Shown here: positions 4,901 to 50,590 of the stretch, piece after piece
Position numbering within the stretch: the first letter of the stretch is position 1
How the letters are laid out: each line of letters begins with the position of its first letter
NCBI GenBank assembly: GCA_944350265.1
Contig: CALVOG010000006.1
Coordinates: 6,709 to 70,708 of the forward strand
Direction: 5' to 3'
Length of the DNA: 64,000 bases
From: an uncultured Clostridia bacterium
GTDB taxonomy: Bacteria; Bacillota; Clostridia; Christensenellales; UBA1242
Position numbers and translations under genes: made by a program
The notes under the pieces: model-generated
Database searches by the model: none
Told to the model about the DNA's origin: nothing
The model's input: the letters and a program-made list of their open reading frames with translations, nothing else

Positions 4901-6357
4901 TTGGTGGCAATGCGCTTTCGGGCGACGTGGTTATGAGCCTAACTGACGACGTGAATTCGCCACTGTTTGGTGGCAGGGGGCTTAAAGTGCAAGGCGATTT
5001 AACCCTCGAAAGTGGTGCCGAAAGCAAACACGCCTTTTCAATCTACTATAACAGCGACCGCGACGCATACGACAATAGCGGAAATGCACTCAGCGGTCTG
5101 TTCTTCACCTATGCGCACAACGAATTTATTGAAGGCGACACGAAGTTTAGAGGGCGAATTGAAGACGGAAATATGAGCGACCTCATCTCAATGATTTTGG
5201 GCATTGCGAATGTGGATATTGACGAGGATAACGCGTGGAATTTGAAAAACTCGACCACCGACTTCTCCTTCTTGCATCAACTTCTTGGCATAGGCGAAAA
5301 TGATATCGGCGAGGACATCGGCAAGGTTGACGGCATTCTTAAAGACGTGTCAGGCGTTTTGAAAATGCTTAAAAAGATATCGTTTGAAGCAACTGATTCA
5401 AATTACAGTTTAATTGTAGATTTTGACTTGGGCGCCGCAAACGCTGACGCAAGGAATAGCACAACAGCCAGCGAAAATATTGGAAAGATTGTAATATTGT
5501 TTGATAATTCAGGCAATCTCACAAACATTTCCTTCTCGCTTGGTGACGACCTATCGGCAAATGTAGAAATTCTTGCATATGACGAAGAGAGTTTCAATTA
5601 TTTTGACAATAACTCTTTCGATAGCCACCACAACCTAAGCAGTTTGCCGGAGTTTATGGATATCGCGGTGAACACTATGAACAAGTTAGAAAACGGCGAG
5701 ATAAGATTTAGCGGAAATGCTTTGGTAAATTTAGTTATTGAAATCAATGTTGGTGTTGATGTTGCGATTTCGTTAGATGAAAATAAGAATATGAAAGTTG
5801 TTGTTGAACTTCGCCCAGATGCAAAATGGTTTTTGTTAGGTGGTTTTGGCACCTATGTAGTAACAAAAGCGGAAGGTCATCAATATACAACTGTAGGGAA
5901 ATTTTCAAATCGAGTGTCAACTTTGACATTTGCGAAAAATGAAACTGGCGAATATAGATTAAGCATAGTTCAAAACACAGACGGCACTATTAAGAGTGCT
6001 GAATATGGTATAAATGAAATAGGACAAAATATCATACCTATCATTGCGCTTTCTTTAGGACTGACTGATAGCACTGTTGACATGATAGATTTTGCTATGG
6101 GAATGATAAATCCAAAAATCTCATTAGAAGAAACGCTAACAAACTTTAAACGAAATGTGGATAATAGTGAAAATCTTACTGGCTACACGCTTGGCATAAA
6201 AGGTGAAACTCTTACAGGCTCCAACCTTATAGGTGATTTTGACCTCAATGTCGAGGTTGTTGAAAATGAAAAAAAATACGCTATTAGGAAGGTTAAAACA
6301 GAATTAGACATTTTAAGTTTTATAGGTCATATTCAACTAGAACTTGACGTAGCCTAA
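1951..6357 (+). CDS. giant (1468 aa) N-terminally membrane-anchored hypothetical protein with an internal module duplication
   Basis: RBS AAGGTGGTGG before the ATG. TM helix LYMIIVLCAFFTYITFFGV. A module of about 170 aa occurs twice (TPTGDEIDISSLMKILENAKIAENVYALS... and TPTGDETDISKIFDIVEDAKIAKDTYALS..., both ending in TLPALS(A/T)IS). No catalytic motif recognised. Confidence 0.7.
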   Translation: MRNLERKERNFLSKLFRAISLYMIIVLCAFFTYITFFGVSDSSSNEQAQGSAPQQATPTEMLLNAFMNSSNVSANASLSVSGEDLSLGATIDAIVDMKTFDFDVSVLLTVGEEVFEISALKNSKEDDFLHFSVNDLKVKLDLADANFSDLIENFDFSAVFGDLVSAEDISKILEDIGRVLGLNLNASSLDDLLSEITDKVSIKENTLENGYRFVIYLGNLRVTLDASTDFKTLSASVDMPKIAGYTTKLEIGSIKLDLPESDVSTPTGDEIDISSLMKILENAKIAENVYALSSRINVTVDETEFEGEVSAKIVDNLPILRAKVTAFGTEAYVYYINNRLYLSVENLNLFLDINNFDYDAITEILNRFDVELDKENFEAISVTLPALSAISVEILENEFNVDISDVIRVGDVEISGVSASFETVTEGDNILPNSLNLTFNMATSDWQNNVQLTLNNIKIGKSAEGLNDTVFGEEPLSLMTKNGLVSVEDFVDLNNLLKVTKTAVQAENITFNIDAKMGQIALSGTGKFDIPSMSFNLDLELNIKGNNDKLSLKFFLYGEDIVNTKTIYMTIGERSFKVDITQMNLESLLAEFGVSVDTTGLIEKIESELKIDFENIDLLDILKNLELTETKTDILSYAISLNGNSVIVKFNEETGAFAVDFSKMIDGDEVKISLSNILTNAPDFTLFTPTGDETDISKIFDIVEDAKIAKDTYALSADLYVRYSASTFEGDILAMLLKDGNNLVPYVRVKTSAMSLETYIYLIDETVYVDLQGLRISADLNEGSVDTIMNFITDLGLDVGGLDGLTTAFNVTLPALSTISANWIDGGVRIYAGDIAYTETERFEDIVIDAFGALSNGKVLLDKLVVGANIMNLTDGDANATNVASLSKPFSTSGERNGEFKEDAITSDKNFAVYLTGLRIGQSVLFKEDIVFDENGNVVSLCGNGGVYEVGDFTNYQTLLPLVEKVYNYVTKSNNFQVGLTANIGGNALSGDVVMSLTDDVNSPLFGGRGLKVQGDLTLESGAESKHAFSIYYNSDRDAYDNSGNALSGLFFTYAHNEFIEGDTKFRGRIEDGNMSDLISMILGIANVDIDEDNAWNLKNSTTDFSFLHQLLGIGENDIGEDIGKVDGILKDVSGVLKMLKKISFEATDSNYSLIVDFDLGAANADARNSTTASENIGKIVILFDNSGNLTNISFSLGDDLSANVEILAYDEESFNYFDNNSFDSHHNLSSLPEFMDIAVNTMNKLENGEIRFSGNALVNLVIEINVGVDVAISLDENKNMKVVVELRPDAKWFLLGGFGTYVVTKAEGHQYTTVGKFSNRVSTLTFAKNETGEYRLSIVQNTDGTIKSAEYGINEIGQNIIPIIALSLGLTDSTVDMIDFAMGMINPKISLEETLTNFKRNVDNSENLTGYTLGIKGETLTGSNLIGDFDLNVEVVENEKKYAIRKVKTELDILSFIGHIQLELDVA

Positions 6358-34234: not shown

Positions 34235-34435
34235 TTACTTGCAACCACCACAGCCACAGTTACTTAAAAGCAAAAGGAACAAAATGGTGCCACAGTCAAC
34301 ATTGATGCCCTTCATTCCACATCCGCCACAGCATTGAAGAAGCAGAATGAGGAAAAGGAGCGAGCAACTGTCATTACCACAGCCACCGCAATCTCTGTTC
34401 ATAGTGTCGCCACAAGAGCCTCCAAAAAAGTTCAT
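34235..34435 (-). CDS. 66-aa Cys/Gly-rich hydrophobic mini-protein, two tandem modules; YjcZ-like 'tiny TM' sporulation-protein resemblance
   Basis: Strong SD (AGGAGGTACAT then ATG). 11 Cys. Two modules: DCGGCGNDSCSLLFLILLLQCCGGCG and DCGTILFLLLLSNCGCGGCK. Family resemblance recalled from memory. Confidence 0.55.
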   Translation of the reverse strand: MNFFGGSCGDTMNRDCGGCGNDSCSLLFLILLLQCCGGCGMKGINVDCGTILFLLLLSNCGCGGCK

Positions 34436-34789
34436 ATGTACCTCCTAATTTTTTTTCATATGTTTTGTGCTTAGCACATTATCATTCTATTAAAAGGCGC
34501 AAAAAGTGTGAAAAATTATTAAAATATGATAAAAACAAGCGCGTGTCGACAAACCTAAGAAGGAGCAATGTCATTTTACGAAAAGTGACAATGTCACCTT
34601 GAATGGCAAATAAATGCTTTGCCTTAAAGTGAAAATGTTGTGCAATAAGAAGAGTTGTAAAATAATTTTATGGCGCAAGAAGAAAGATATGAAGTGTTTG
34701 ATAAGAACTCAGCACAAAAATTTTTGTGAAAGAATGAATGAATAATTTTCCTCTTATTGCAAACAATAAAAGCGTTAAAAGGAGGAAAA

Positions 34790-35350
34790 ATGAAAAGAAG
34801 TCTTAAAAGCGTGATTTCACTTTTTGCCGTTGTTGCCATACTTTTGGTGGGCGGTTTAACTCTCACGGCGTGCGGAACGAACACCTACATAACACCATCA
34901 AGCGGAGCGTCGTTTTCTGGCAGTGATGTGAAGTTCACAAACGCCAGCGATTTTGCTCTTAGATATGTTGGCGACAACAAGTATGAGGCAACAGGAAGCG
35001 CCAATGCAATGACCAAGGACCAAGCAACCGCGTGGGGAACAGTGGAAGGCTCAAAATTCGTTGTTTTAAACGTAAAGATGGGCAAAGACGCCAATGCCAT
35101 CATCGGCTGGAGAAACAAAGAGACCGAAGATAAGGCGTTTGCGGAAAGCGAAATCGACGGCACGCTCATCAAACGTTCAACGTCAAGTAACGACACCAAA
35201 AACTACATTTTGGCACTCACCGACGGCGACACGTTAAGGCACGAAGACCTTAAAGTTTGGCGAATTGAGATAACCGAGAACGGCGCGAAAGAAAGCGTTG
35301 CTTACACAGTTGATTTCACCAAACTTTACGAAAACCTAGCGAAAAAATAA
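34790..35350 (+). CDS. lipoprotein, function unknown
   Basis: Start set to ATG 34790 after AAAGGAGG. Signal peptide plus lipobox LTLTAC|G. Confidence 0.75.
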   Translation: MKRSLKSVISLFAVVAILLVGGLTLTACGTNTYITPSSGASFSGSDVKFTNASDFALRYVGDNKYEATGSANAMTKDQATAWGTVEGSKFVVLNVKMGKDANAIIGWRNKETEDKAFAESEIDGTLIKRSTSSNDTKNYILALTDGDTLRHEDLKVWRIEITENGAKESVAYTVDFTKLYENLAKK

Positions 35351-35369
35351 CGCCAAGGCGGAATTTTAG

Positions 35370-35410
35370 GCAAGCAAAAAGAAATTTTCTCTTTTGCTTG
35401 TCTTTTTTTT
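35370..35410 (+). terminator. rho-independent terminator (isolates the downstream operon)
   Basis: Stem CAAGCAAAA / TTTTGCTTG followed by a T-run of about 9 (TCTTTTTTTT). Confidence 0.75.
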
Positions 35411-35418
35411 AAAATATT

Positions 35419-35427
35419 TGTTATAAT
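35419..35427 (+). promoter_or_regulatory. extended -10 element TGtTATAAT, candidate promoter of the 7-gene operon
   Basis: TG 35419-35420, TATAAT 35422-35427. No good -35. ATG at 35450. Confidence 0.4.
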
Positions 35428-35449
35428 AACTTTGAGACAAAGGGCTTCA

Positions 35450-36217
35450 ATGGAACTAATCAAATTCAACGGAACGAACGAAAAATTGTTTTCGCGCGTG
35501 GTGGTGGGAAACTGCACGCCGAAAACCACGCTTATTGTGCCAGAAACTCACAGCGCACTTGTCTTTTTTAATGGCGAGATGCTTCAAACCCTTTCAAAAG
35601 GACGCTACAAACTTGCCGACATTGTCAATATATCTAGCGACGCGCTTTTGGAAATCATCTTCGTTTCAAAAACGGCAAAACTAAAACTTTTGTGGGGAAC
35701 GCCAAACAAATTCACTCTCTTCGACCCGGCACCATACAAAGTTGGGCTAAGCGGTGAGTTTGAGGTGCAGGTTGCCGACCCAAGAAAATGCTTTCTCTAT
35801 CTTGTTGGTGCAGAAGAGGACCTAACGGCAGACGCACTGCAAGAAAGGTTAACCTCACGGCTCGTTTCGGAGATTTCGCTTGCTCTTTCAAAGTATGTCA
35901 AAGAAAACTCGTTAAAGCGTGATCAAATTTTCATTGAAAGGCAAAAGATTGCCGATTCCGCTCTCAAAAGTGTTTCAACGATTTTTAATAATGAGTATGG
36001 AATCAAGGTTTTTTCGCTCAGCATTTTAAATGTAATCTTTGACGAAAACATAAGCGCAAGCGAAAAGGTTTGTCCAAATTGTCACACCGCCCTTCTTGCC
36101 GACGCCAAATTTTGCTTTAATTGTGGCGAAAAATTAAGTGGCAAGGTCTGCTTGAAATGCCATTTTGAAAATGTCAATGGTGCGAAATTCTGCGCGAATT
36201 GCGGAGAAAAATTTTAG
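35450..36217 (+). CDS. SPFH (band-7)-like protein of the YdjI/COG4260 type with two C-terminal zinc ribbons
   Basis: N-terminal ..LIVPETHSALVFFNGEMLQTLSKGRYKL.. matches the YdjI-type pattern (recalled). CPNCHTALLADAKFCFNCGEKL and CLKCHFENVNGAKFCANCGEKF. Start set to ATG 35450, because the TTG at 35432 lies only 4 nt downstream of the -10 hexamer and so falls at or upstream of the predicted transcription start. Confidence 0.6.
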   Translation: MELIKFNGTNEKLFSRVVVGNCTPKTTLIVPETHSALVFFNGEMLQTLSKGRYKLADIVNISSDALLEIIFVSKTAKLKLLWGTPNKFTLFDPAPYKVGLSGEFEVQVADPRKCFLYLVGAEEDLTADALQERLTSRLVSEISLALSKYVKENSLKRDQIFIERQKIADSALKSVSTIFNNEYGIKVFSLSILNVIFDENISASEKVCPNCHTALLADAKFCFNCGEKLSGKVCLKCHFENVNGAKFCANCGEKF

Positions 36218-36226
36218 GAGGTAATT

Positions 36227-36622
36227 ATGTTGTATGTTTATATTGCGCTTGCAGTTGTCATTGTTGGGCTTGCCATATTTTTCCTTATCAAAGAGTTGAA
36301 AAGCCCGAAAAAGCAGGTGACTGAGGGCGATGTTGTGGTGGAAAGTAAGCGTCGAATAGAAAAGGCGGTTTCAAACCTCGATTCGATGATTGAGCTTGTG
36401 CAAAATAACGACAAGTTAAAAACGAAACTCTCGTCGCTGAGAGAAATCATCCGCTTTTTAAATCCAGTTAAAAGCGAAAAGGTGAAGGTGGTGGATGAGA
36501 AGATTTTATCACGCCTTGACGACCTTAAAATTGAGATAAGTAAGGACGAAAATGCTGAAACCATTTGGCGTATGATTGAAGAGGTTGAGGGATATATCGC
36601 GCAAAGGACGAAAGAAGTATGA
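36227..36622 (+). CDS. single-pass membrane protein with a cytoplasmic helical domain (131 aa)
   Basis: SD AGGAGG. TM helix LYVYIALAVVIVGLAIFFLI. The rest is predicted helical/coiled. Confidence 0.6.
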   Translation: MLYVYIALAVVIVGLAIFFLIKELKSPKKQVTEGDVVVESKRRIEKAVSNLDSMIELVQNNDKLKTKLSSLREIIRFLNPVKSEKVKVVDEKILSRLDDLKIEISKDENAETIWRMIEEVEGYIAQRTKEV

Positions 36623-36972
36623 CGCGAACACTTTCGGTGAGCGTTAGTGCGAAGGACCCTGAAAACGCACTAAGAGAGTTAAAACTGGGCTACATAAATT
36701 TAGAGGACGGGCTTTTCAAAAACGCCGAGGTCGATTTTGATATGGTGCTTTTATTAGACCCTGAGTGCGCGGACGCCTTTTGGGGGCTTATGCTTGCAAA
36801 GAAAAAAATTAGGCGCGAAGAAGCACTTAAAACCAACGCGGTGCTATATAAAGACATCGTAAAACTAAAAGAATACGACAAAGCAATGGAGTTTGCGGAC
36901 GAGACAAAAAAGGCGCTTTATAAAAACCTTTTAAGCGAAATCTACAAACTTAACGACGGCGATAATTATTAA
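36619..36972 (+). CDS. small TPR-like helical protein (117 aa)
   Basis: ATGA overlap with the previous gene. The motif ..AEVDFDMVLLLDPECADAFWGLMLAKKK.. resembles the TPR unit found after the zinc ribbon in the 1206-aa protein (..AEKEFDKIISLYPKSYEAFFGRVLSKNK..). Confidence 0.55.
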   Translation: MTRTLSVSVSAKDPENALRELKLGYINLEDGLFKNAEVDFDMVLLLDPECADAFWGLMLAKKKIRREEALKTNAVLYKDIVKLKEYDKAMEFADETKKALYKNLLSEIYKLNDGDNY

Positions 36973-36983
36973 AAGGAGGCTGT

Positions 36984-37586
36984 ATGTGGTGGCCATTTAA
37001 ACGGAATAAATTTAAAAACATTGTGCGAGAAGATTTGGTGAACTCCATTTGCGAACTCGAAAGGCAAGAACGCACGGCGGAAGCGGAAATAATGCAAAAG
37101 CAAAAGGAAATTGACGCGCTTTTAGAGAAAGGTAAGAAGGAAAAAACGGAGGATTTGAGGCTTTTCTATGCAAAAAAAATCAGCCACCTCAAAGAAGAAA
37201 AAGCGTCGATTGTGGAAAGGGGGATGTATCTTCTTTATAACATTCGCCTTATGAACAAACTTAAAGATGCGTATGACGCAAACGCCTTCTTTAAAACCAA
37301 AACAAAGGTGCCTCTTTCAGAACTACTTGCCGACCAAAGAGGACTTGCAAAATTCTTAAACAAGGCGCTTGAAACGCGCATTGCAAGCGAGGATGTTTTA
37401 ACAAGTGCTGACGATTTGTTCAGTGAAATCCAGGGCGCATACGACAAAAACGAAAGTATTTACGGGCTTAAAAAAGAGGATGAAGAGCTCTTGTCCTCGT
37501 TCGAAAAAGAGGGCGCACTAAAAGACGAAGAGATGATTGGTGAAAGTGAAAAAGTCAAGGATAAAAAAATAAAAATGGAGGAGTAA
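36984..37586 (+). CDS. ESCRT-III superfamily (Snf7/CHMP-like) protein, paralogue 1
   Basis: SD AAAGGAGG. Aromatic/basic N-terminus MWWPFKRNKFK. Predicted long helical hairpin (REDLVNSICELERQ...LLEKGKKEKTEDLRLFYAKKISHLKEEKASIVERGMYLLYNIRLMNKL). Acidic C-tail. Call based on architecture only. Confidence 0.4.
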   Translation: MWWPFKRNKFKNIVREDLVNSICELERQERTAEAEIMQKQKEIDALLEKGKKEKTEDLRLFYAKKISHLKEEKASIVERGMYLLYNIRLMNKLKDAYDANAFFKTKTKVPLSELLADQRGLAKFLNKALETRIASEDVLTSADDLFSEIQGAYDKNESIYGLKKEDEELLSSFEKEGALKDEEMIGESEKVKDKKIKMEE

Positions 37587-37588
37587 AA

Positions 37589-38182
37589 ATGGGACTTTTT
37601 AGAACAAAACAGCAAAAGGAAATTCAAAAAAAGATGCTTGTTAAGCGCACGGTGAACTCGATGAACAAGCAAATTGCAAGGCTGGAGGAGCAGAAAAAGG
37701 TGTTTATTGACGCCGCAAAGCGCGCAAAAGAGAAGAATTTGGATGCGCAATTTAATCTGGCGTTGTCGGGCTACCGAATGACCACTCAGCAACAAAAACG
37801 CGCACAAGAAATGCTTTTGAACTTTGAAATAACCGCGCAAATGCGCGATGTCACAATGATGACCACCGAATTTTTGAGAGGGATGAGCGTTATCAGCAAG
37901 GAGATGAGCAAACTTGCCGACGCCAAGGAATTTGAGAAGATTCAAGCGCAGTTTGAAGAGGCAATCACTGCTGTTGAAACTCAAACCGAGCAGATTGACA
38001 GTTTTATGGAACTAAGCCAAGAGAGTTTTGCTTCGGCTGGCAAGGCTAAGGACGGAAAGGATATCACCGCTGACGATTTTGAAAAATTCATCACCGAGGC
38101 ATCCTCAAAAGACGAGGCGTCAAATGACGATATCGACAAGGAAATTGAAGAATTAAAAAAGAAAATTGACAGCGAAGCATAG
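37589..38182 (+). CDS. ESCRT-III superfamily (Snf7/CHMP2/3-like) protein, paralogue 2, with a C-terminal MIM1-like motif
   Basis: N-terminal MGLFRTKQQKE (compare CHMP3 MGLFGKTQEK, recalled). The helical hairpin and alpha3-5 layout parallels CHMP2/3. C-terminus DDIDKEIEELKKK has hydrophobic residues at i, i+4 and i+7 followed by Lys. Confidence 0.55.
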   Translation: MGLFRTKQQKEIQKKMLVKRTVNSMNKQIARLEEQKKVFIDAAKRAKEKNLDAQFNLALSGYRMTTQQQKRAQEMLLNFEITAQMRDVTMMTTEFLRGMSVISKEMSKLADAKEFEKIQAQFEEAITAVETQTEQIDSFMELSQESFASAGKAKDGKDITADDFEKFITEASSKDEASNDDIDKEIEELKKKIDSEA

Positions 38183-38190
38183 GAGAAAAT

Positions 38191-39294
38191 GTGGAAGATA
38201 TTGAACTTCTAAACGACACTTTTAACCTCTATATGCAAAAGGGGAAAGAGGCGAAAGAAAAGGGAAATTTTGCGCTGGCGAAGCGTAATTTTATGCTCGC
38301 GGGCGAAACAATGATGAAAATGGCAAAGGCGAGTAAGGGCGCTCTTCGCGAGGCACGCCTGACGCGCGCAAGGCGGATTGTGGAGTTGTCGAGCGATTTA
38401 AAAGAGAAGAAAAAAGAAGAAAATGCCGATGACGACGTTAAAAAATGGCAGTCCGCAGAGGTTCCTAACATCGGTTTTAAGGACGTCGCTGGGCTTGATG
38501 ACGTTAAAAAAGCGATAAAAATTAGAATGATAAATCCTTATCTTCACCCTGATAAATATAAACTCTACAACAAAAAAACAGGCGGAGGCGTGCTTTTGTA
38601 TGGTCCTCCTGGCACTGGCAAAACGATGATTGCCAAGGCGATTGCAAACGAGGTTGGTGCCAAATTTTATGCTGTCAAAGGTTCTGACATCGTTTCAAAA
38701 TGGGTGGGCGAAAGTGAGAAGAACATAAATTCGCTCTTTGAGGAGGCGAATAAGCAACAGCGTGCGATAATCTTTATCGACGAAATGGACAGCCTTTTGG
38801 GGAAGCGTGGCGTTGACACTCATAACGACAAAAGAGTGAACGAATTTTTGCAACAAATGGACGGGTTCAGCGGGAAAAATCCCAACCTTCTTCTGCTTGG
38901 CGCCACAAATAGACCGTGGGATATCGACAGTGCGGTTTTGCGCTCGGGGCGTTTTTCGCAAAAGATTTACATTCCTTTGCCAGACGCTGATGCAAGGCGG
39001 TTTATGATTGAAAAAAGTATGAAAAACGTGCCAACCAGCAAGGATTTCAGCGTCGATAAAATAGTTCAAAAAACCGAACTTTTCAGTGGTGCCGACATCG
39101 ACGAACTATGCGACCGCGCGAAAGACGAGCCTCTTTTAAAAGCGATTGCCACTAACAGCGTTGTGGAGGTCACAAACAAAGATTTCGACGAGGTTTTGAA
39201 GGTTTTTCCGCCAAGCGTGACGGAAGGCGACTTAAAAATGTTCGATAAATTTAATGAGGATATCAACAGTTTGATTTCAAAAAAGAAGAAATGA
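38191..39294 (+). CDS. Vps4-like AAA ATPase (MIT-like N-terminal helical domain + one classic-clade AAA cassette)
   Basis: GTG start 5-6 nt after AGGAG. N-terminal 75 aa or so form a helical bundle (LYMQKGKEAKEKGNFALAKRNFMLAGETMMKMAK...). GPPGTGKT, IIFIDEMD, SKWVGESEKN, GATNRPWDIDSAVLRSGRF, KIYIPLPDADAR, C-terminal FPPSVTEGDLKMFDKF. Confidence 0.7.
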   Translation: MEDIELLNDTFNLYMQKGKEAKEKGNFALAKRNFMLAGETMMKMAKASKGALREARLTRARRIVELSSDLKEKKKEENADDDVKKWQSAEVPNIGFKDVAGLDDVKKAIKIRMINPYLHPDKYKLYNKKTGGGVLLYGPPGTGKTMIAKAIANEVGAKFYAVKGSDIVSKWVGESEKNINSLFEEANKQQRAIIFIDEMDSLLGKRGVDTHNDKRVNEFLQQMDGFSGKNPNLLLLGATNRPWDIDSAVLRSGRFSQKIYIPLPDADARRFMIEKSMKNVPTSKDFSVDKIVQKTELFSGADIDELCDRAKDEPLLKAIATNSVVEVTNKDFDEVLKVFPPSVTEGDLKMFDKFNEDINSLISKKKK

Positions 39295-42200
39295 GAGAAA
39301 GAGTTTGTTCAAATTGCGGAGGCAAGAGATATGTTGAAGTTGCGCAGAACACCTATAAATGCTTGTTCTGCGGAACTATCTATGTCGACGAAAAGGGCGC
39401 GACCGAAGAGGACGTCCTCTTAGTTGGCGCTAACGAAAAACTAAGGGCGCTTCAATTTGGCGAGGCGGAGAAGGAATTTGACAAAATAATTTCGCTCTAT
39501 CCAAAGTCATACGAGGCGTTTTTTGGGCGGGTGCTTTCTAAAAACAAGGCGAATGTTGTGGATGGCAGGACGCTCGCATTTTTTGGTGATGAAATTCACT
39601 CGTTCTTTGGCGATGAGGACTTTGAAAAGGCGACCTCTTTCGCGCCAAGAGAAATAAAGGAAAACTACGAAGCGCTTGCAAAATTCGCCGATGTGGTTCG
39701 AAAAAATCTTAAAAATACCACTTTTGATGTCATTTTAAATGGCAATTTTCGCTCACCTCACTTCAAAAAAATGAAAGAGGCGCTTAATGAGCATTCTCTT
39801 TTTACGCGTGAAGATGCGAAGAAAAATAACGCCAATTTAGAGGCGCAAGTTTTCGAAGCCACAAAAAGCGCCAAGTGCGAGGTGCTTCTTTTGGAGCGCG
39901 AAAGCGATTTGGATGACGCAAAAATCAAAAATCTTTTCCAGCGATTTGTCTATCGCATAACAAACAAACAGCGCTTTCCGTCCTCCTTTATTGTTGCGTA
40001 TGACGATAAGGTTGTGGATATTGAAAGCATAAAGGGTGCCTTCCCTTTCTTGCAGGTTTTGTTGTCCGTCAACGAAATTTCCTTTTTATATGATTTAAAA
40101 AATTATGTCAAAAAGGCGGTGGAGAAGGAATTTAACCAAACCGTGACGCTTGAAAAGAGGGAGGTTGAGAGGGTGAGTCCAACGCTCACAAATCCAACTG
40201 TCATAGAGCCGAAGGAACTTGGCACATACAAAATCGAAAACGCCACGCTTTCCGACCAAAATAAGACCAAGTGGATTTTCTATTCTTTAAAAAACGGCGA
40301 TTTTCAAACGGCGGAGAAATTAATCGCAGAGCAAACCACAAAAACGGGCGAGATTGCGTTTGCTTCGCTCTTACTTGCCGAAAATTTGCGGACGCCTGAG
40401 GAGTTTTTCTCCAGCCTCGACAACTTCAAAAACAAGGAACTATTGGAAGACATTTTGAAATATTCAAGCAAAGAGTTTGCCGAAAAATTCATCAATCGCT
40501 GGGAGGAACTTGTTGTCAATGAGAACGACGCCGACACTTACATCAAATACCTGCCGTTTTTGGTGCCGTATGAAAATTCTTACCGCGAAACATTCTTAAA
40601 AAATGCGGAAAACTTAGCACTCGACACGCAAAACAAGGCGCTTGTTGAGTGTGTTGAAAAGGCAATTTCAAACGGCGACGAACTTGTCAATTTTTACTTT
40701 CAACTCGCGCAAAAAACGGGCGATGAGGGATATTATCAAAAGGTGCTTTCGCTCAATTCTGGGCACGCGCCAAGTTTGTTTGCGCTTTTTATGAAAAATT
40801 TTTCATCTCCGCAAGAAAAACTCTCTTTCCGCGATGATGAAAAGGTGAAAAATGTCTTAAAATTTTGCACCTCTTCGCAAAAGGACGCCTTTTTAACCAG
40901 CCTTATAAGTCAAATTCTCGACGTTGCGTTTTTTGATTTGAAAAGTGCCGAAAAGCAGTTTGACTACTATCTTTCCTATTTTGACCACCCGCAGGAAGCG
41001 CTTAAAAAAATTGGAAGCACGCTGAAAAGTTGTGGTTTTTTCACTCTTGCGGAAAAATATATCACCTTGGCAATCGGCAACGCCAAAACGGACGCGTCGC
41101 TCTATTTTGAACTCCTAGAAATCAAAGCGCACGCCAGAAGTGAAGCGGAATTATTGACCACCAGCGTGAAACTGGCGGAGATGGACGATTTTAAAAACGT
41201 TCTTTCCTATGCCAGCGAGCGCGACGCCGAACACTACGCGCAAATTGTGGCTAATGCCAACATAAACTCGGCGCAGAAGGTGTTTCGCGCGGAGGTTTTA
41301 GACAAGATTTCTCTCAAAGAAAAACTTAAAGAATTTATCCTTCGTAACGACAAAATATTAAACGAGGTCGACGACGAGGCAACGGCAAAATATTATCGCG
41401 CCGAAATTTTTGCCTTTGAAAATTATTTCGAAAAAATCGACGACGCCACGAATTTTGAAGTGTATATGGAAATTGTCGACAGGGTGGACGCGCGATTGGA
41501 GGCACTTAATCTCACCCTCGACTCGTCAATTAGCCTTGCTGATATCGCCGTGAAAAGCGAGCGGTATGGGCGGGTATTGCGCGAGGAAAAGAATAGGGCG
41601 GAGCGGTATCTCACCGATGAGGAGCGCGCCTCTCGCAAGAAAAAACGAGACATCATTCTCTTCTTAACCCTTCTTATTTTGCCAACAGTTTTGTGCAGTT
41701 TGCTTTTTGTGTTTGTGCTTATTTTTCCAAAGAGTATGTATATGTCAATCTCGCAAGAGGCGGTGATTGCGGTTGCGCTTTTCTCGCTTGCACTTGGAAT
41801 TGGCGCATTCATTTTCAACCTTTTCAAAAAAAACACAAAAGAGTTTTATCGCGTTTCCAGGCTTTGTATTTTTGCAGTTTCGATTGTCAACTTGTTTTTG
41901 ATGCTAATCGGGCTGTATGTTGCCCCGCCAAGTCTGGAGGTGACAAGTGCGAAGGAGTTTACGAAACTTGTCCACAACGCCAAATATGCCAACATTTTGG
42001 TTATGGACGACCTCGATTTTGAGGGAGAAACTTTCAAACCGCAAAACTTTTACGGCACCGTTAAGGGTGGTGACCATAAGATTTACAACTTTTCCGCATC
42101 GGCACTCTTTTCCTCTTTAAGTGGCGAAGTTGTAAACCTCAATATTGAATTTGTCGAAACTGAGGAATTTTACGGACTAACCAAAACTCTCAGCGGAAAG

Positions 42201-42911
42201 TTGGAAAACTGCAATGTCAGAGCCACTTTTTCGGCAACTAGCGACGGTGCTTATGGCGGACTTGCGGGCACGGTCGATGGCGGAGAGATTACATCTTGCA
42301 CCACAAACTTAAGTTTAAACATTAGTGGCGAGATTGTTTTCGGTGGGCTTGTTGGCAATTTCGAGGACGGAAAAATCACAAAATCGCGGGCAAATATAAA
42401 CGGTGATATCAGTGGGAACGGAATCTACGGCGGGCTTGTGGGCTATGCTGGCAGTGGCGAGATTAGCGAAAGTTATGCTGAGGTTGACCTGTCGCTTGTC
42501 GCTGACAACGCCATTTTCGGTGGGCTCGTTGGGCGTAACCGTGGCAACATTTCAAACTCTTATTCGCAAGGGATGGTGCAGGTGGAAGGCGAAAATAACC
42601 TTCTTGGTGGAATTGCGGGCGAATTTTTTAGGCGCAATAAAGTGATTGAAAAATCCTATTCAAACCTCTCATTCAGTTTAAACGATTTTGGCGGAATTGT
42701 GGGCGCTTTTAAAGAGGGAAAGATTGAAAATTCCTTTGCTTTCACCGGCGAAAAAATCTATCTCACCAAAGGCACAGAGCGTTTGGCGCCTGAGCCAGAA
42801 AACACCACTATTCTTTCGGTTGAAGAATTTGAAAACTCCTTCAATTTAAGTGAGGATATTTGGGAAATTGAAAATGGTAAAGCGCCAAAACTCAAAGCGT
42901 TTTCAAATTAA
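39291..42911 (+). CDS. 1206-aa membrane protein: N-terminal zinc ribbon + TPR-like/helical cytoplasmic region, 3 TM helices, C-terminal extracytoplasmic GLUG-motif repeat domain
   Basis: ATGA overlap with the ATPase gene. CSNCGGKRYVEVAQNTYKCLFCG. TM helices at about 41650-41930 (ILFLTLLILPTVLCSLLFVFVLIF, AVIAVALFSLALGIGAFIFNLF, LCIFAVSIVNLFLMLIGLYV). GLUG repeats at about 42240-42740 (YGGLAGTVDGGEITSC, FGGLVGNFEDGKITKS, YGGLVGYAGSGEISESY, FGGLVGRNRGNISNSY, LGGIAGEF, FGGIVGAFKEGKIENSF). Confidence 0.7.
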   Translation: MRERVCSNCGGKRYVEVAQNTYKCLFCGTIYVDEKGATEEDVLLVGANEKLRALQFGEAEKEFDKIISLYPKSYEAFFGRVLSKNKANVVDGRTLAFFGDEIHSFFGDEDFEKATSFAPREIKENYEALAKFADVVRKNLKNTTFDVILNGNFRSPHFKKMKEALNEHSLFTREDAKKNNANLEAQVFEATKSAKCEVLLLERESDLDDAKIKNLFQRFVYRITNKQRFPSSFIVAYDDKVVDIESIKGAFPFLQVLLSVNEISFLYDLKNYVKKAVEKEFNQTVTLEKREVERVSPTLTNPTVIEPKELGTYKIENATLSDQNKTKWIFYSLKNGDFQTAEKLIAEQTTKTGEIAFASLLLAENLRTPEEFFSSLDNFKNKELLEDILKYSSKEFAEKFINRWEELVVNENDADTYIKYLPFLVPYENSYRETFLKNAENLALDTQNKALVECVEKAISNGDELVNFYFQLAQKTGDEGYYQKVLSLNSGHAPSLFALFMKNFSSPQEKLSFRDDEKVKNVLKFCTSSQKDAFLTSLISQILDVAFFDLKSAEKQFDYYLSYFDHPQEALKKIGSTLKSCGFFTLAEKYITLAIGNAKTDASLYFELLEIKAHARSEAELLTTSVKLAEMDDFKNVLSYASERDAEHYAQIVANANINSAQKVFRAEVLDKISLKEKLKEFILRNDKILNEVDDEATAKYYRAEIFAFENYFEKIDDATNFEVYMEIVDRVDARLEALNLTLDSSISLADIAVKSERYGRVLREEKNRAERYLTDEERASRKKKRDIILFLTLLILPTVLCSLLFVFVLIFPKSMYMSISQEAVIAVALFSLALGIGAFIFNLFKKNTKEFYRVSRLCIFAVSIVNLFLMLIGLYVAPPSLEVTSAKEFTKLVHNAKYANILVMDDLDFEGETFKPQNFYGTVKGGDHKIYNFSASALFSSLSGEVVNLNIEFVETEEFYGLTKTLSGKLENCNVRATFSATSDGAYGGLAGTVDGGEITSCTTNLSLNISGEIVFGGLVGNFEDGKITKSRANINGDISGNGIYGGLVGYAGSGEISESYAEVDLSLVADNAIFGGLVGRNRGNISNSYSQGMVQVEGENNLLGGIAGEFFRRNKVIEKSYSNLSFSLNDFGGIVGAFKEGKIENSFAFTGEKIYLTKGTERLAPEPENTTILSVEEFENSFNLSEDIWEIENGKAPKLKAFSN

Positions 42912-43057
42912 AAATTTAAAATTTATAAAAAATTAATGAAAAACACATAAAAAACGCATAAAAAACCATTAAAAATGTGAAAAAAATAGAAAAACTAAAT
43001 TACACCGAATAGAAAAGTAAATTAAAATATAAAAAAACGATGTTGATTTAATAAAAA

Positions 43058-43098
43058 CATATTGAAATGAGTTTTCCTCAAATCAATATGCTTTTTTA
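43058..43098 (+). terminator. probable terminator of the 7-gene operon (imperfect hairpin + T-run)
   Basis: CATATTGAAATGAG..CTCAAATCAATATG (12 of 14 positions pair) followed by CTTTTTTATT. Confidence 0.5.
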
Positions 43099-43306
43099 TT
43101 GGGAGTTTGCAATTATATCATAAATTAGCCAGCGATTGACAATATCACATTTGTATATAGCGATTTGTCGCGCAAATATCGTAGTCAACGCACCCTAATA
43201 TGCTAGCGATTTGGCGCGTCAAATATTATAACTCACACGCCTAAATTATTACTTGCCATTTGTTTGTTAATCTTGTTTTCTTAGATTAATTATGACGGCA
43301 AATTTT

Positions 43307-43801
43307 TCAAATCTCCTTTACCAAAACATTGGCGTTAAGGTAAGTGAAATCGCTTGCGGTTGTGTTTTGCAAACTTAATGTTGAGGTTGAAAGCACGGTT
43401 AAGACAACCGTTTTCGTTAGTGCCACATTATTCCCGGCGGTGCCAGAAACGGTGGTTGTGGAGTTTGGCAAGAGCGCGCCATTATCATAAAGTGCCACGC
43501 TTGCCGTGCCACCAGCAGGTATTGTGCTGTTGACGGAATAGGTGATTTCATATTCGCCCGGCGTTAAAGTTATGGCGCCCAACGTGGTGCTTTGCGTGAT
43601 TTTACTTCCGCGTGACGATGCTAACGTGAGCGGAATGATTGAGTTTGCGGTAGCAGTTCCGCCAGTGCTCACAAAATAGCCAAACGAGGTTGGTAAAACC
43701 GGGTTTATAATGCTGTTCCCCTCGTCGCAGTCGCCAAATATGAAGATTGGGCGAGGAGTGGTGGGATAACAAAAACCTCCACATCGTGTGAAACAAGTCA
43801 T
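43307..43801 (-). CDS. hypothetical protein with an N-terminal Cys cluster and a BclA-C-terminal/C1q-like beta-rich domain (possible spore-surface protein)
   Basis: SD AAGGAG. N-terminal MTCFTRCGGFCYP..GDCDEG. C-terminal pattern ..TLTPGEYEITYSVNSTIPAGGTASVALYDNGALLPNSTTTVSGTAGNNVALTKTVVLTV..TLSLQN.. resembles exosporium BclA-CTD-type jelly rolls (recalled). Confidence 0.5.
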   Translation of the reverse strand: MTCFTRCGGFCYPTTPRPIFIFGDCDEGNSIINPVLPTSFGYFVSTGGTATANSIIPLTLASSRGSKITQSTTLGAITLTPGEYEITYSVNSTIPAGGTASVALYDNGALLPNSTTTVSGTAGNNVALTKTVVLTVLSTSTLSLQNTTASDFTYLNANVLVKEI

Positions 43802-49888: not shown

Positions 49889-50590
49889 ATGGACTTAACA
49901 AATTTATTGAAATACCAAGAGGTGGACGCAAAACTTTTCGATGTTGAAAGCAAATTGACGGCAAGCCCAGCAAGAAAGAAGATGAGTGAACTTTCCAAGG
50001 TGGCAAAAACGGCGCAAGTGAAATCTAACGAACTTGAGGCGGAGGCAAACAAGGTGCTTGCCGAAATCGACGATGTGAAAGTGAAGTTTGAAGAAAACAA
50101 GAAGAGTTTGCAAAGCCTTTTAAACAAGGACCTAGAAAAACTTTCGGCGGAAGATTTGGATAAAATTTCCGTCCTCAAAGGGAAGATTTTGAATAATTTA
50201 AACTACTTAGAAAAGGCTCTTCAAAAACACGCGGAGCAAATTAACCACATTTTAATGGAGTATAATAAAACCAAGAAGATGTATGACGGAGCGCGCGTGC
50301 AGTTTATTGAATGCAAGAAAAAAGTGGAAGAGGAAACCAAAATTTTGGAACCGGAAAAGGAGCGCTTAAAGAAAGAACTTGAAACGCTTTCGAAGAGTGT
50401 TGAGAAAAATCTTATGGCGGAATACCAAAAGCGCCGAAACGACCACATTTTCCCTGTTGTTGTTCCGCTTGAAGGCACAAATTTTTGCGGACGTTGCCGA
50501 ATGGAATTGCCAATGGTGGCGATTTCGCGTATAAAGGATGTTGGCGTGATAACCTGCGAACATTGCAAGCGCTTGGTTTATAAAAAATAG
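49889..50590 (+). CDS. coiled-coil protein with a C-terminal C4 zinc ribbon (COG1579 / DUF164-like)
   Basis: Long coiled coil followed by FCGRCRMELPMVAISRIKDVGVITCEHCKRLVY. SD AGGAGG. Confidence 0.6.
   Translation: MDLTNLLKYQEVDAKLFDVESKLTASPARKKMSELSKVAKTAQVKSNELEAEANKVLAEIDDVKVKFEENKKSLQSLLNKDLEKLSAEDLDKISVLKGKILNNLNYLEKALQKHAEQINHILMEYNKTKKMYDGARVQFIECKKKVEEETKILEPEKERLKKELETLSKSVEKNLMAEYQKRRNDHIFPVVVPLEGTNFCGRCRMELPMVAISRIKDVGVITCEHCKRLVYKK

Follow-up and report, generated by a model that had tools for sequence, protein, structure and literature searches.

Systems combining ESCRT-III subunits with a Vps4 ATPase are represented in archaea by CdvB and CdvC of the Sulfolobales, where Cdv acts in cell division, and by ESCRT-IIIA/B and Vps4 of the Asgard archaea. 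The operon analysed here, found in a window of 64,000 nucleotides (the whole stretch of DNA under study), shares with them a MIM-type tail on an ESCRT-III subunit and a two-subunit arrangement, possibly a nucleator and a Vps4-recruiting subunit. It differs by its host, a bacterium (Christensenellales-like Clostridia), by the absence from the operon of CdvA, ESCRT-I/II and winged-helix partners, and by the partners present instead, which are SPFH-zinc-ribbon and zinc-ribbon/TPR/TIR proteins. Its ATPase (g6) forms its own clade, is not nested among the archaeal Vps4, and reaches 216 bits, far under the equivalog cutoff of the CdvC model (650 bits). Makarova et al. (2024, PMC10936438) describe archaeal "Meth_adaptin" ESCRT loci, in which one protein unites SPFH, coiled-coil and zinc-ribbon parts. 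From this description, the loci resemble the operon by a zinc-ribbon adaptor, comparable to g1, and by a protein composed of a cytoplasmic module, a TM linker and an external domain, comparable to g7, but they carry adaptin-appendage/GOLD adaptors where TPR, TIR and GLUG domains are found here. It would be speculation to propose an evolutionary link between the two, for example a transfer involving gut methanogens and Christensenellales.

In Bacillus subtilis, the SPFH protein YdjI recruits PspA. The pspA-ydjGHI operon likewise associates the gene of an ESCRT-III-superfamily polymer with those of an SPFH and zinc-ribbon protein (YdjI), which brings the polymer to the membrane, and of small membrane proteins. 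In contrast, the polymer is here of the Snf7 type, a dedicated MIT-AAA ATPase is present, and homologues of YdjG and YdjH/TPM were not detected. The bacterial pairs of VPS4-like MIT+AAA and TPR-6TM proteins, for which Ravi et al. (2024, PMC11237479 and supplement) infer a membrane-proximal action, also display an MIT+AAA ATPase adjoining a large TPR membrane protein; the present system differs by its occurrence in Bacillota and by its Snf7-family genes, SPFH protein and TIR-family module. Finally, the sister operons, with their TIR W...E motif, short BrxL and serine peptidases, recall anti-phage systems with TIR domains, of the Thoeris type among others, and the BrxL of BREX, but the operon matches no known defence model, and in the window copy the TIR-like domain is predicted to be inactive and the other enzymes are absent. 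No published description of the operon was found in the literature, and the literature searched yielded no defence system with an ESCRT-III/Vps4 core.

Organization and conservation of the operon

Seven open reading frames (g1 to g7) are present on the + strand of the window. The features are the following:

35368..35411, + strand: intrinsic terminator of the lipoprotein gene that precedes the operon, taken as its 5' boundary; hairpin 35368-35403, GGCAAGCAAAAAGA...UCUUUUGCUUGUC then U8 (-16 kcal/mol, z -3.67)
35398..35427, + strand: sigma-70-like promoter match, TTGTCT, 18-nt spacer, TG-extended TATAAT; 10/12 matches, the region's top match (consensus match only)
35450..36217 (TTG alternative 35432), + strand: g1, SPFH domain (Band_7_1, PF13421, 1e-11) and C-terminal double zinc ribbon (DZR, PF12773, 1e-10), YdjI-like architecture without TM helix
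36227..36622, + strand: g2, single-pass membrane protein with an N-terminal TM helix within residues 1-27 (hydropathy peak 2.85) and a cytoplasmic coiled-coil tail
36619..36972, + strand: g3, small TPR-like protein (TPR_1 6.8e-4, below cutoff)
36984..37586, + strand: g4, probable second ESCRT-III-like subunit; aromatic/basic N-terminus MWWPFKRNKF followed by a long helical hairpin and shorter helices, with IYG...DDELLxxFE conserved and the tail acidic
37589..38182, + strand: g5, Snf7-family ESCRT-III subunit; MGLF-basic N-terminal motif, acidic linker, C-terminal MIM1-like helix (DDIDKEIEELKKKI)
38191..39294, + strand: g6, Vps4-like ATPase; MIT-like three-helix N-domain (residues ~1-75), linker, single classical AAA cassette, C-terminal Vps4_C-type helix
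39291..42911, + strand: g7, transmembrane protein of 1206 aa; in order, a zinc ribbon (residues 6-27), TPR repeats, a degenerate TIR-like domain, a further TPR/helical region, three TM helices and an extracytoplasmic GLUG domain
39723..40070, + strand: TIR-homologous segment of g7 (residues ~145-260) lacking the catalytic glutamate; SPWVKNEWSRF of TIR-bearing homologues corresponds to DAKIKNLFQRF
41646..41936, + strand: three predicted TM helices of g7 (residues ~786-882; Kyte-Doolittle peaks 2.95, 2.58 and 2.48)
41937..42908, + strand: predicted extracytoplasmic domain of g7 (residues ~883-1206) with GLUG repeats (PF07581, 1.4e-7, three stretches)
43050..43100, + strand: likely operon terminator, hairpin then U-run (-13.9 kcal/mol, z -4.18; 0/200 shuffles fold equally well)

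The gaps from g1 to g7 are, in order, 9, -4, 11, 2, 8 and -4 nt, both overlaps being of the form ATGA. Shine-Dalgarno sequences of the GGAGG type precede g2, g4 and g5, and a weaker AGGAG precedes g6. Because the promoter-like site lies just upstream, the ATG at 35450 (MELIKFNG...) is a likelier start of g1 than the TTG at 35432. An earlier note on this DNA had described seven same-strand ORFs with gaps of -4 to +11 nt, two ATGA overlaps and SD sites, bracketed by a terminator at 35370-35410 and a hairpin/T-run at 43058-43098. Coordinates and gaps were confirmed, and both hairpins are more stable than shuffled sequence (z of -3.7 and -4.2). The domains that it had assigned to g1 (SPFH/YdjI-like with zinc ribbons), g2 (single-pass membrane protein), g3 (TPR-like, here a weak match) and g7 (zinc ribbon, three TM helices, GLUG repeats) were all recovered. 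The zinc ribbons of g1 contain four CxxC pairs (residues 208, 222, 234 and 248), whereas profile searches gave no family match for g2. The neighbours of the window copy (comEC, holA, typA, dnaG and rpoD) are those of a core chromosome, and an Hsp20 gene is located near the operon.

The survey comprised 80 species-level loci, the first 52 of which were used for the colinearity counts, and farther contigs including L081, L084, L086, L088, L089 and L090. All seven genes occur in order at 47 of these 52 loci; among the other five, the operon runs into a contig end in two, and in three a single accessory gene (g2, g3 or g7) was not called. The core g1-g2-g4-g5-g6 is seen again in most of the remaining loci with contigs reaching that far, and it is also retained farther away, in more remote Christensenellales and in Bacillota of other groups. 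The linkage of g1 to g7, for which the earlier note had proposed a neighbourhood survey, is therefore far above chance expectation. In most loci extending that far g1 heads the operon, as it also does in distant cassettes, and g2 keeps its position in most loci; g3 is absent from the distant clades. The best-conserved part is g4-g5-g6, with 69-95% identity across colinear loci, while g7 evolves fastest (31-59%). A cassette of SPFH, Snf7-like and AAA genes is found in L081, L086 and L088 at merely ~29-31% identity of g5, whereas L084, L089 and L090 retain the Snf7-like and AAA pair, a clear SPFH gene not being seen.

The ESCRT-III-like proteins and the ATPase

The family profile of g5 matched CHMP2A in the PDB (E 6.5e-6, residues 8-150 against 5-143) and CHMP1B (0.022), its nearest relations being CHMP2A, CHMP1B and CHMP3. 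The Pfam family Snf7 (PF03357) was matched by 16 of 96 family members (best 1.4e-9) and PspA_IM30 (PF04012) by none of the 96. At their C-terminus the proteins of the family retain the MIM1-like helix, and the i, i+4, i+7 hydrophobic pattern occurs in 81/96 tails vs 23/96 shuffled tails. By these matches, g5 is classed as a true Snf7-family ESCRT-III protein and not as PspA.

The case of g4 is different. No match was obtained with Pfam and PDB profiles, no ESCRT-III family gave a significant match, and no family member matched PspA_IM30. The AF2 model of g4 (pLDDT 64.6) has helices at 15-52 and 56-106, and that of g5 has a pLDDT of 72.5. With models of such moderate confidence, Foldseek returned no significant match for either protein (all E >= 0.28); the list of g4 is nevertheless rich in CHMP3, Vipp1, CdvB2 and Asgard ESCRT-IIIB, and Vipp1 structures appear in both lists. 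The alignment of the g4 and g5 families by hhalign is collinear across 164 columns (prob 28.7%, E 6e-4). The ESCRT-III membership of g4, suggested by its layout, is unproven, so that the proposal of two Snf7/CHMP-type proteins holds for g5 and, for g4, reduces to a layout.

The AAA cassette of g6 (PF00004, 1.7e-44) contains every motif quoted in the earlier note, and has GPPGTGKT as Walker A, IIFIDEMD as Walker B, SKWVGESEK as pore loop and NRPWDIDSAVLRSGRF as SRH. The Vps4_C family (PF09336) is matched at 22.6 bits (cutoff 21.3), and the CdvC model aligns over positions 7-357 of 370, that is full-length. The N-domain profile matched MIT domains (2mpk 0.0058; VPS4A/B 0.36-0.76) and PF04212 was matched by 5 of 20 orthologues; the evidence for its identity as an MIT domain is weak. 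However, the corresponding HMM detects, at 1e-17 to 1e-19, the ATPases of the L084 and L086 cassettes, and in L084 the same N-domain is carried by a different AAA module, of the SpoVK/CbbX type. This domain is thus a constant companion of the Snf7-like genes even where the AAA module differs. On the other hand, the AAA core scores equally well against Cdc48-D2, the arginine-finger segment LRSGRF is of the Cdc48/FtsH type, and the tree shows a separate bacterial clade that is not firmly placed between Vps4/katanin/spastin and Cdc48-D2 (bootstrap value of 16%). The designation as a Vps4-like MIT-AAA protein is thus retained for the MIT-like domain, the Vps4_C helix and the full-length CdvC alignment, but not in the sense of Vps4 orthology. 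The observations that the earlier note had set against its own reading (neither helical protein matching ESCRT-III, an FtsH, SpoVK or CbbX placement without MIT, unconserved linkage) were not made.

The zinc-ribbon/TPR/TIR module and the sister operons

The N-terminal 400 residues of g7 are homologous to a zinc-ribbon/TPR/TIR/TPR module of the sister clades (hhalign prob 100%, E 8.8e-51). All proteins of the TIR clade share W260, E264, W265 and R267, whereas window g7 gives no match to Pfam TIR; its TIR-like domain is predicted to be inactive. With three TM helices after a cytoplasmic N-terminal module, the GLUG domain is expected to lie outside the cytoplasm. Some TIR-bearing-family proteins of 518-588 aa in L070, L075 and L076 have g3 as their best match in the window, and g3 appears to be related to the TPR segment of g7 and of the zinc-ribbon-TPR-TIR family. 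Both this kinship and the module in g7 had been missed by the earlier note.

The sister operons encode intact TIR proteins with a conserved W...E motif, trypsin-like peptidases (directly 3' of g6), full-length short BrxL (PADLOC 646 bits) and SNF2 helicases, and in some relatives the Snf7 domain is fused to FtsK (FtsK/SpoIIIE DNA translocase) or RuvB-NERD. Accessory genes are exchanged between clades. The window copy has no protease, BrxL or other enzymatic "defence" partner, and PADLOC gave no system match for the operon beyond a generic IetA-type AAA similarity. The operon belongs, as one branch, to a larger Bacillota family that has not been described.

Proposed role and alternative readings

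We consider, with a probability of about 0.55, that the operon encodes a bacterial ESCRT-III/Vps4-like membrane-remodelling machine with a role in the response to envelope damage or invaders. From homology and gene context, we infer the following steps. The proteins g1 and g2 would tag or organise an area of the cytoplasmic membrane, on which g4 (the probable nucleator, with its aromatic/basic N-terminus) and g5 (a CHMP2/CHMP1-type subunit) would co-polymerise. The MIT-like N-domain of g6 would bind the MIM1-like helix with which g5 ends, and the hexameric AAA ring would thread subunits via the KW(V)G pore loop, resulting in ATP-driven remodelling and recycling of the polymer and, in turn, in membrane sealing, constriction or shedding. 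The protein g7, most likely a sensor or recruiter, would connect the cytoplasmic machinery with the cell surface, g3 being a putative free copy of its TPR piece. The response to envelope damage or invaders (e.g. phage) is proposed because of the TIR, peptidase, BrxL, SNF2, FtsK and RuvB-NERD partners of other branches, and for the window copy the conflict role would be extrapolated from these relatives. This copy appears to be a domesticated version, since it has lost the TIR catalytic Glu, lacks protease and BrxL, and is located in the core chromosome.

The same genomic site, together with the conserved colinearity, the absence of relatives in IMG/VR viral contigs and the loss of the catalytic TIR residue in g7, would also suit a housekeeping scission of membranes (cell division with an abscission-like closure, extracellular vesicles or spore-related fission) in which g7 would anchor the machinery to the cell wall or surface, and the Snf7-FtsK/SpoIIIE and Snf7-RuvB-NERD fusions would fit the clearance of DNA from a closing membrane neck. 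We regard this explanation as rather unlikely. TIR, BrxL, SNF2 and trypsin-like peptidases, with which the wider family pairs its core, are characteristic of conflict systems rather than divisomes; the accessory genes change from clade to clade, the divergence of g7 far outpaces that of the core, and no fts, min or spo linkage exists in the loci examined. On balance, a role in envelope damage or conflict is favoured over plain housekeeping. It is somewhat more doubtful still that g6 is a generic defence ATPase (an IetA-like unfoldase or regulator) serving TIR, protease or BrxL, the helical proteins being coiled-coil scaffolds outside any ESCRT-like cycle. Its matches to PADLOC IetA (4e-40) and NCBIfam IteA (1.7e-33), the IetA-IetS-like succession of g6 and peptidase in sister clades, the SpoVK/CbbX-type AAA of L084 and the unproven status of g4 speak for it. 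However, the IetA match spans only the generic AAA core (116-136 bits against 216-218 for CdvC/Cdc48), the sister-operon peptidases match no IetS model, and g5 belongs to the Snf7 family and has kept its MIM1-like tail across that family's bacterial members. Moreover, the MIT-like domain stays with the Snf7-like genes when the AAA module changes, and the window clade conserves g4-g5-g6 most strongly despite having lost protease, BrxL and catalytic TIR.

It is very improbable that the operon is a variant of the PspA/YdjGHI module for envelope stress, with g4 and g5 as diverged proteins of the PspA/Vipp1 and not the Snf7 type and with a regulator, PspF-like or unrelated, as the ATPase. The YdjI architecture of g1, the Vipp1 structures in both Foldseek lists and the nearby Hsp20 gene are in its favour, but no protein of either family matches PspA_IM30 while 16 relatives of g5 match Snf7 and the g5 profile matches CHMP2A, CHMP1B and CHMP3, counterparts of YdjG and YdjH (TPM) are missing from the operon, and g6 is a classical AAA protein with an MIT-like domain and no sigma-54 activator. 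The related proposal of the earlier note, a ydjGHI-type module with PspA replaced by Snf7 subunits and a Vps4-type ATPase, is made too narrow by the missing YdjG/YdjH (TPM) and by the TIR-family and sister modules; the association of Snf7, MIT-AAA and SPFH/zinc-ribbon proteins on which it was built is present in the operon.

Layout and conservation of the operon

Translation confirmed the seven ORFs (g1 to g7) that the earlier note had placed on the same strand, with intergenic gaps of 9, -4, 11, 2, 8 and -4 nt from g1 to g7 and a hairpin at both ends. Strong ribosome-binding sites (GGAGG) are found 5' of g2, g4 and g5, and a weaker one (AGGAG) 5' of g6. The features of the region are the following:

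35368-35411, + strand: upstream hairpin and U-run (z -3.7 against shuffled sequence)
35398-35427, + strand: TTGTCT-18-TGnTATAAT, the top promoter-like site of the region
35432 or 35450-36217, + strand: g1
36227-36622, + strand: g2
36619-36972, + strand: g3
36984-37586, + strand: g4
37589-38182, + strand: g5
38191-39294, + strand: g6
39291-42911, + strand: g7
43050-43100, + strand: downstream hairpin and U-run (z -4.2 against shuffled sequence)

As the promoter-like site is localized between the upstream terminator and the operon, the start of g1 is probably the ATG at 35450 rather than the TTG at 35432. In the window, the operon is flanked by the core-chromosome genes comEC, holA, typA, hsp20, dnaG and rpoD, and the pattern scan found no relatives in the viral contigs of IMG/VR; an origin from a phage or a mobile element was therefore rejected.

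A pattern-guided scan with one genome per species detected 80 loci, all from metagenome-assembled genomes of Clostridia. The pattern used (EM[LM]LNFE[IL], reduced alignment) confines this census to Christensenellales-like genomes. The homologues belong to 'Candidatus Caccovivens' and to other Christensenellales-like Clostridia from gut metagenome assemblies, all uncultured organisms. The genes g1 to g7 are colinear in 47 of the 52 closer loci (L001-L052); in the remainder, two operons are cut by a contig end and three are without one accessory gene call (g2, g3 or g7). The sister clades (loci L055-L080) possess the core g1-g2-g4-g5-g6 where the contig allows it, with g3 mostly undetectable and a different g7 slot. 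The neighbourhood survey proposed as a test of the linkage thus shows it to be conserved.

The proteins g4 and g5 and the ATPase g6

Used as single queries, g4 and g5 gave no match in Pfam, NCBIfam, PADLOC or the PDB, and the shallow profiles of both built from close orthologues gave none either. The relatives of g5 were collected by an exhaustive profile search (359 clusters at 50% identity) and 96 representatives were aligned; the relationship with Snf7 is visible only after this search and with the 96-member profile. Against the PDB, this profile matches human CHMP2A over the whole ESCRT-III core (E 6.5e-6), followed by CHMP1B (0.022) and CHMP3. Taken singly, 16 of the 96 members match PF03357 (Snf7; best 1.4e-9), among the family P0366 scores above the gathering cutoff, and none of the 96 matches PF04012. 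The AF2 model of g5 (pLDDT 72.5, with low confidence at residues 150-177) contains helices at 7-48, 52-109, 112-149, 161-172 and 179-196, which make up a long hairpin and two more helices and, after an acidic linker that is disordered, a terminal helix. The terminal helix carries the conserved motif D-x-x-I-[DE]-K-E-[IL]-x-x-L-[KR]-K-K, the spacing of which fits the MIM1 motif (D/E)xxLxxRLxxL(K/R), and the hydrophobic pattern i, i+4, i+7 is present in 81 of the 96 tails of the family versus 23 of 96 shuffled tails. This helix fits a MIM1-like tail, predicted to recruit a MIT-ATPase. From the CHMP2A profile match, the 16 matches to PF03357, the hairpin layout of the model and the MIM1-like tail, we conclude that g5 is, by its sequence, a genuine Snf7-family ESCRT-III protein, closest to the Vps2/CHMP1/Vps24 type, which recruits Vps4 in eukaryotes. 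The assignment of g5 to this family in the earlier note is therefore borne out.

The same note had counted two ESCRT-III-like proteins of about 200 aa; g5 is established by its profile, whereas g4 shares the layout and gives no significant match. The N-terminus of g4 is aromatic and basic (MWWPFKRNKF, and MWPFKSKY in relatives), and its AF2 model, of moderate confidence like that of g5, predicts a hairpin (helices 15-52 and 56-106) followed by shorter helices; the protein also contains 'IYG...DDELLxxFE' as a conserved segment and ends in an acidic tail. With 27 orthologues, g4 matches neither Snf7, nor PspA, nor any ESCRT-III protein of the PDB. The hhalign comparison of the g4 and g5 families is weak (probability 28.7%, E 6e-4), though collinear over positions 1-180 (164 columns). 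Against fungal Snf7, g4 reaches 8.6%, a comparison of little power since the positive control, the g5 family itself, reaches just 36.7%. The g4 family is absent from the more distant cassettes described below, where g5-type genes number three in L086, including a fusion to FtsK, and two in L084. This distribution fits a diverged, lineage-specific paralogue without proving it, and g4 is a plausible but unproven candidate for a second ESCRT-III subunit.

A Foldseek search with the AlphaFold models of g4 and g5 had been named beforehand as a check. [quoted passage not shown] These lists were not counted as evidence for the fold. Structures of CT398/HP0958 are also found among the matches of both models, indicating that matches to a long hairpin are generic. 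A CT398-like protein, with a coiled-coil hairpin and a C4 zinc ribbon, is encoded in the window at 49889-50590 (+), directly 3' of rpoD.

The gene g6 had been presented as a Vps4-like MIT-AAA ATPase. Its translation contains the motifs GPPGTGKT, IIFIDEMD and SKWVGESEK in a single classical AAA cassette (PF00004, 1.7e-44), and a marginal Vps4_C domain (PF09336, 22.6 bits for a cutoff of 21.3), also weak in the relatives from L056 and L090. The match to the NCBIfam model of CdvC (NF041006) runs end to end, from 7 to 357 of 370 positions, with 216 bits for an equivalog cutoff of 650, and the score for Cdc48-D2 is equal (218 bits); p97/Cdc48 D2 is on top of the PDB sequence search. The pore loop SKWVGESEK is Vps4-like ('SKWLGESEK' in VPS4B). 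The arginine-finger segment SAVLRSGRFSQK (LRSGRF) is of the Cdc48/FtsH/PAN type ('PAILRPGRLDQ' in p97-D2), and the second region of homology of the 'RRF/RRL...KR' type, found in Vps4, katanin and spastin ('SAIRRRFEKR' in VPS4B), is not present in g6. Concerning the N-domain, a profile of 20 sequences gave as best PDB match 2mpk (E 0.0058), which we take to be the MIT domain of a chitin synthase, then four VPS4A/B MIT entries at 0.36-0.76, weak matches that cover the full three-helix bundle (residues 17-84). PF04212 (MIT) is matched by five of the 20 orthologues (best 1.5e-4), a consistent but weak signal. The N-domain may thus be MIT-like.

A neighbor-joining tree was obtained from 249 columns of 19 AAA sequences with 200 bootstraps, a sparse sampling treated by a distance method. 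Over the regions used, the reference sequences of VPS4B, spastin, katanin and PAN agree almost completely with PDB chains, at about 2.1-2.2 bits per residue; the archaeal Vps4 reference matches the AAA chain of 4d80 at 2.1 bits per residue and the full-length 4lcb at about 1.7, p97 D1 and D2 come from the PDB search matches, and FtsH is that of E. coli. In this tree g6 and its relatives form a separate bacterial clade (94-97% bootstrap), which joins Vps4, katanin and spastin rather than p97-D2 with 16% support only. The identities of g6 are 41% with VPS4B, 39.8% with p97-D2, 38.1% with archaeal Vps4, 33.9% with FtsH and 33% with PAN. The phylogeny suggested as a check therefore separates g6 clearly from FtsH, SpoVK and CbbX, but it does not place it inside the Vps4 clade, just as g6 does not pass the CdvC equivalog cutoff. 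The Vps4-like pore loop, the Cdc48/FtsH-like arginine finger and the 16% node lead us to consider g6 as Vps4-type by predicted architecture and by context, and not as an established orthologue: the motifs and Vps4_C speak for the first description of this protein, the MIT matches agree with it weakly, and the tree does not decide between Vps4/katanin/spastin and p97-D2. An IetAS ATPase-protease pair was also considered and rejected, as the match to IetA concerns only the AAA core (136 bits) and the window encodes no protease; in the sister clades, the trypsin-like peptidases are recognised by RT-protease models and not by those for IetS.

In most loci of the clade of the window, g6 is directly 3' of g5, with a small extra ORF between them in four. 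Such ORFs, unannotated and of 112-298 aa, are found for example in L017 (10629-11525), L033 (10744-11082) and L049 (8012-8485). In the sister clades g6 is adjacent to g5 or a few genes away, and in the distant cassettes the two lie within a few genes.

Accessory proteins and distant cassettes

The protein g1 contains an SPFH domain of the Band_7_1 type (PF13421, 1e-11) and a double zinc ribbon (PF12773, 1e-10) with four CxxC pairs, and no transmembrane helix is predicted in it. A single N-terminal transmembrane helix and a coiled-coil tail are predicted in g2. In Pfam, g3 has a TPR match below threshold only, and its sequence appears akin to the TPR piece of the zinc-ribbon/TPR/TIR/TPR family described below. 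By its domain content, g1 resembles YdjI in architecture, which agrees with part of the proposal of a YdjGHI-type module with PspA replaced. YdjG consists of zinc ribbons, an NTF2-like domain and a transmembrane segment, and YdjH of a TPM domain; however, searches of Pfam and NCBIfam detected no domain of the YdjG or YdjH type in g2, g3 or g7. Since these partners are missing and PspA_IM30 (PF04012) is matched by neither g4, g5 nor any of their 96 and 27 relatives, the operon was rejected as a PspA/YdjGHI module.

The sister clades contain one or two proteins of 550-1450 aa with the layout zinc ribbon/TPR/TIR/TPR. The N-terminal 400 residues of the g7 clade align with these Pfam TIR_2-bearing proteins over 391 columns (hhalign, probability 100%, E 8.8e-51), and g7 has no match to PF13676. 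The residues W260, E264, W265 and R267 are invariant in the TIR clade ('SPWVKNEWSRF'), and the aligned segment of g7 is 'DAKIKNLFQRF' ('WVKNEW' replaced by 'IKNLFQ'). The glutamate of the W-x-x-x-E motif is presumably the NADase catalytic residue, as in plant and SARM1 TIRs, and g7 accordingly has, as judged from this alignment, a TIR-like segment lacking the catalytic glutamate. C-terminal to this module, more helical repeats, three transmembrane helices (about residues 786-882) and an extracytoplasmic GLUG domain are predicted; hydropathy and Pfam confirm the helices and the GLUG domain that had been noticed in gene 7. It is the fastest-evolving gene of the operon, with 31-59% identity in loci where g4 to g6 keep 69-95%.

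In sister clades a trypsin-like peptidase (PF13365) is directly 3' of g6 (L057 8285-10523, L058 12153-13052, L060 15446-16387, L066, L069, L077 and L080). It is often followed by a short BrxL-type ATPase of about 480 aa (PADLOC BrxL, 646 bits, full length), and no BREX system is present in the loci with this short BrxL.

Far more distant relatives of g5, with about 29-31% identity, are found on contigs with cassettes akin to the operon. Those of L081, L086 and L088 share one gene order, namely SPFH (Band_7), a protein of about 300-344 aa, Snf7-like and AAA ATPase, and giant proteins of about 700-1260 aa are encoded 3' of these genes. The conserved protein of about 300-344 aa, without Pfam match, is located between the SPFH and Snf7-like genes at L081 1501-2430, L086 11270-12304, L088 13350-14384 and L089 6630-7538. 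In L089 and L090 the Snf7-like and AAA genes precede those of giant TIR-bearing proteins (1204 and 1003 aa). A BrxL and an SNF2 helicase are additionally present in L089, an SNF2 helicase at the contig end of L086, and trypsin-like peptidases in L084 and L088. The HMM of the MIT-like N-domain also matches the ATPases in the cassettes of L084 and L086 (1e-17 to 1e-19). In L084 (6860-7978), this domain (E 2.8e-19) is carried by an AAA of the SpoVK/CbbX type (AAA_lid_6) with 18.5% identity to g6. Since the MIT-like N-domain is kept on different AAA modules, it is this predicted domain, and not the ATPase type, that tracks the Snf7-like genes, and the invariant is the pairing of a Snf7-like protein with a MIT-like ATPase.

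Two kinds of fusion were also observed. A Snf7-family N-terminal domain is fused to FtsK_alpha and FtsK_SpoIIIE in L086 (8001-9863), P0296 and P0314. It sits where the usual membrane anchor would be, and the fusion adjoins a cassette composed of Band_7_1, Snf7-like, MIT-AAA and giant zinc-ribbon/TPR/LRR genes. The same kind of domain is fused to a RuvB-like AAA with a winged helix in L088 (9001-11403, P0307), L084 (8001-9668, P0316, which is MCL2630377.1 from a 'Firmicutes bacterium') and P0364, with a NERD nuclease added in P0307 and P0364; these genes adjoin a trypsin-like peptidase and SPFH/Snf7/AAA genes.

Possible role and genomic neighbourhood

The system that we infer, in all its steps, would work as follows. 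SPFH assemblies of g1, together with g2, would mark a membrane patch, by analogy with B. subtilis, where YdjI does so for PspA (cited in PMC10936438). At this patch g4 and g5 may polymerise, and the MIM1-like tail of g5 would recruit g6 through its MIT-like domain. Using ATP, g6 would thread and recycle the subunits, leading to membrane sealing, constriction or shedding, and g7 could connect the cell surface, where its GLUG domain would lie, with the machinery in the cytoplasm by its TPR/TIR-like scaffold.

The intact TIR, peptidase, BrxL, SNF2 and NERD partners of related operons, the swapping of accessory genes between clades and the fast divergence of g7 point to a role of the family in envelope attack or conflict. 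The operon of the window appears to be a domesticated derivative, given its core-chromosome location, its stable synteny and the loss of these TIR, peptidase, BrxL, SNF2 and NERD enzymes. As the main rival, we consider a housekeeping scission that would serve division or vesicle formation; it finds its best support in the Snf7-FtsK and Snf7-RuvB-NERD fusions. The full reading is that Bacillota own an ESCRT machinery, widespread among them, in which a Snf7-type polymer is combined with a MIT-AAA disassemblase and an SPFH scaffold. Connected to TIR, BrxL, protease and nuclease modules, it would form an immune system that perceives attack on the envelope and responds by ATP-driven membrane sealing, shedding or abscission, and it would be domesticated in some lineages including that of the window; we consider this reading as tentative, with a probability of roughly 0.3. 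As for the ESCRT-III/Vps4-type membrane-remodelling operon of the earlier note, its seven genes, the Snf7 nature of g5 and the linkage stand, whereas g4 is unproven and the sparse tree does not place g6 inside the Vps4 clade.

To our knowledge, the ESCRT-III relatives ascribed to bacteria are limited to the distant PspA/Vipp1 branch. According to a 2025 review (PMC7619361), bacteria appear to lack a Vps4-like ATPase that regulates ESCRT-III. Ravi et al. 2024 (PMC11237479 and its supplement) reported the transfer of 'VPS4-like' MIT+AAA genes to five phyla outside the Firmicutes, where snf7 is replaced by a TPR-6TM protein, and divergent membrane-anchored Snf7-like proteins beside double-AAA ATPases. 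The archaeal 'Meth_adaptin' loci resemble the present operon in their overall logic, as they combine a protein made of SPFH, coiled coil and zinc ribbon with a zinc-ribbon adaptor and with an external domain attached through a TM linker. In the literature searched, neither a Snf7 + MIT-AAA + SPFH operon in Bacillota nor its link to TIR, BrxL or peptidase is described. The interpretation of the earlier note is partly supported, and it is extended to an ESCRT-III/Vps4 logic in bacteria with new partners. A conserved bacterial pairing of Snf7, with its MIM1-like tail, and MIT-AAA would revise the picture limited to PspA/Vipp1, offer a compact bacterial model of few core proteins for ESCRT-III/Vps4 mechanics, and reopen the question of the origin of the polymer-ATPase couple (ancient, acquired from archaea, or formed when a Cdc48-like ATPase was recruited independently). 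The recurrent TIR, BrxL, peptidase, SNF2, NERD and FtsK partners suggest unexplored membrane-acting conflict systems in Clostridia abundant in human and animal guts. If the immune reading is true, the partnership of ESCRT-III and Vps4 would not be an archaeal invention found in archaea and eukaryotes alone, and the connection known in animals between membrane repair by ESCRT and innate immunity would have its counterpart in bacteria.

Several other genes of the window were recorded. The ORF at 1951-6357 (+), of 1468 aa, has no Pfam match at E <= 0.001. A 66-aa ORF at 34235-34435 (-), unannotated and with an extreme content of Cys and Gly (…CGGCGNDSC…CCGGCG…CGCGGCK), may be a gene. The operon is closely followed, on the other strand (43307-43801, -), by a 164-aa ORF without Pfam match, rich in Thr, Ser and Asn with a Cys-rich N-terminus. 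Finally, a 197-aa lipoprotein-like gene at 34757-35350 (+), upstream of g1 and separated from it by the terminator, accompanies the operon in about 20 of the 52 closer loci (L001-L012 and others), with 31-78% identity.
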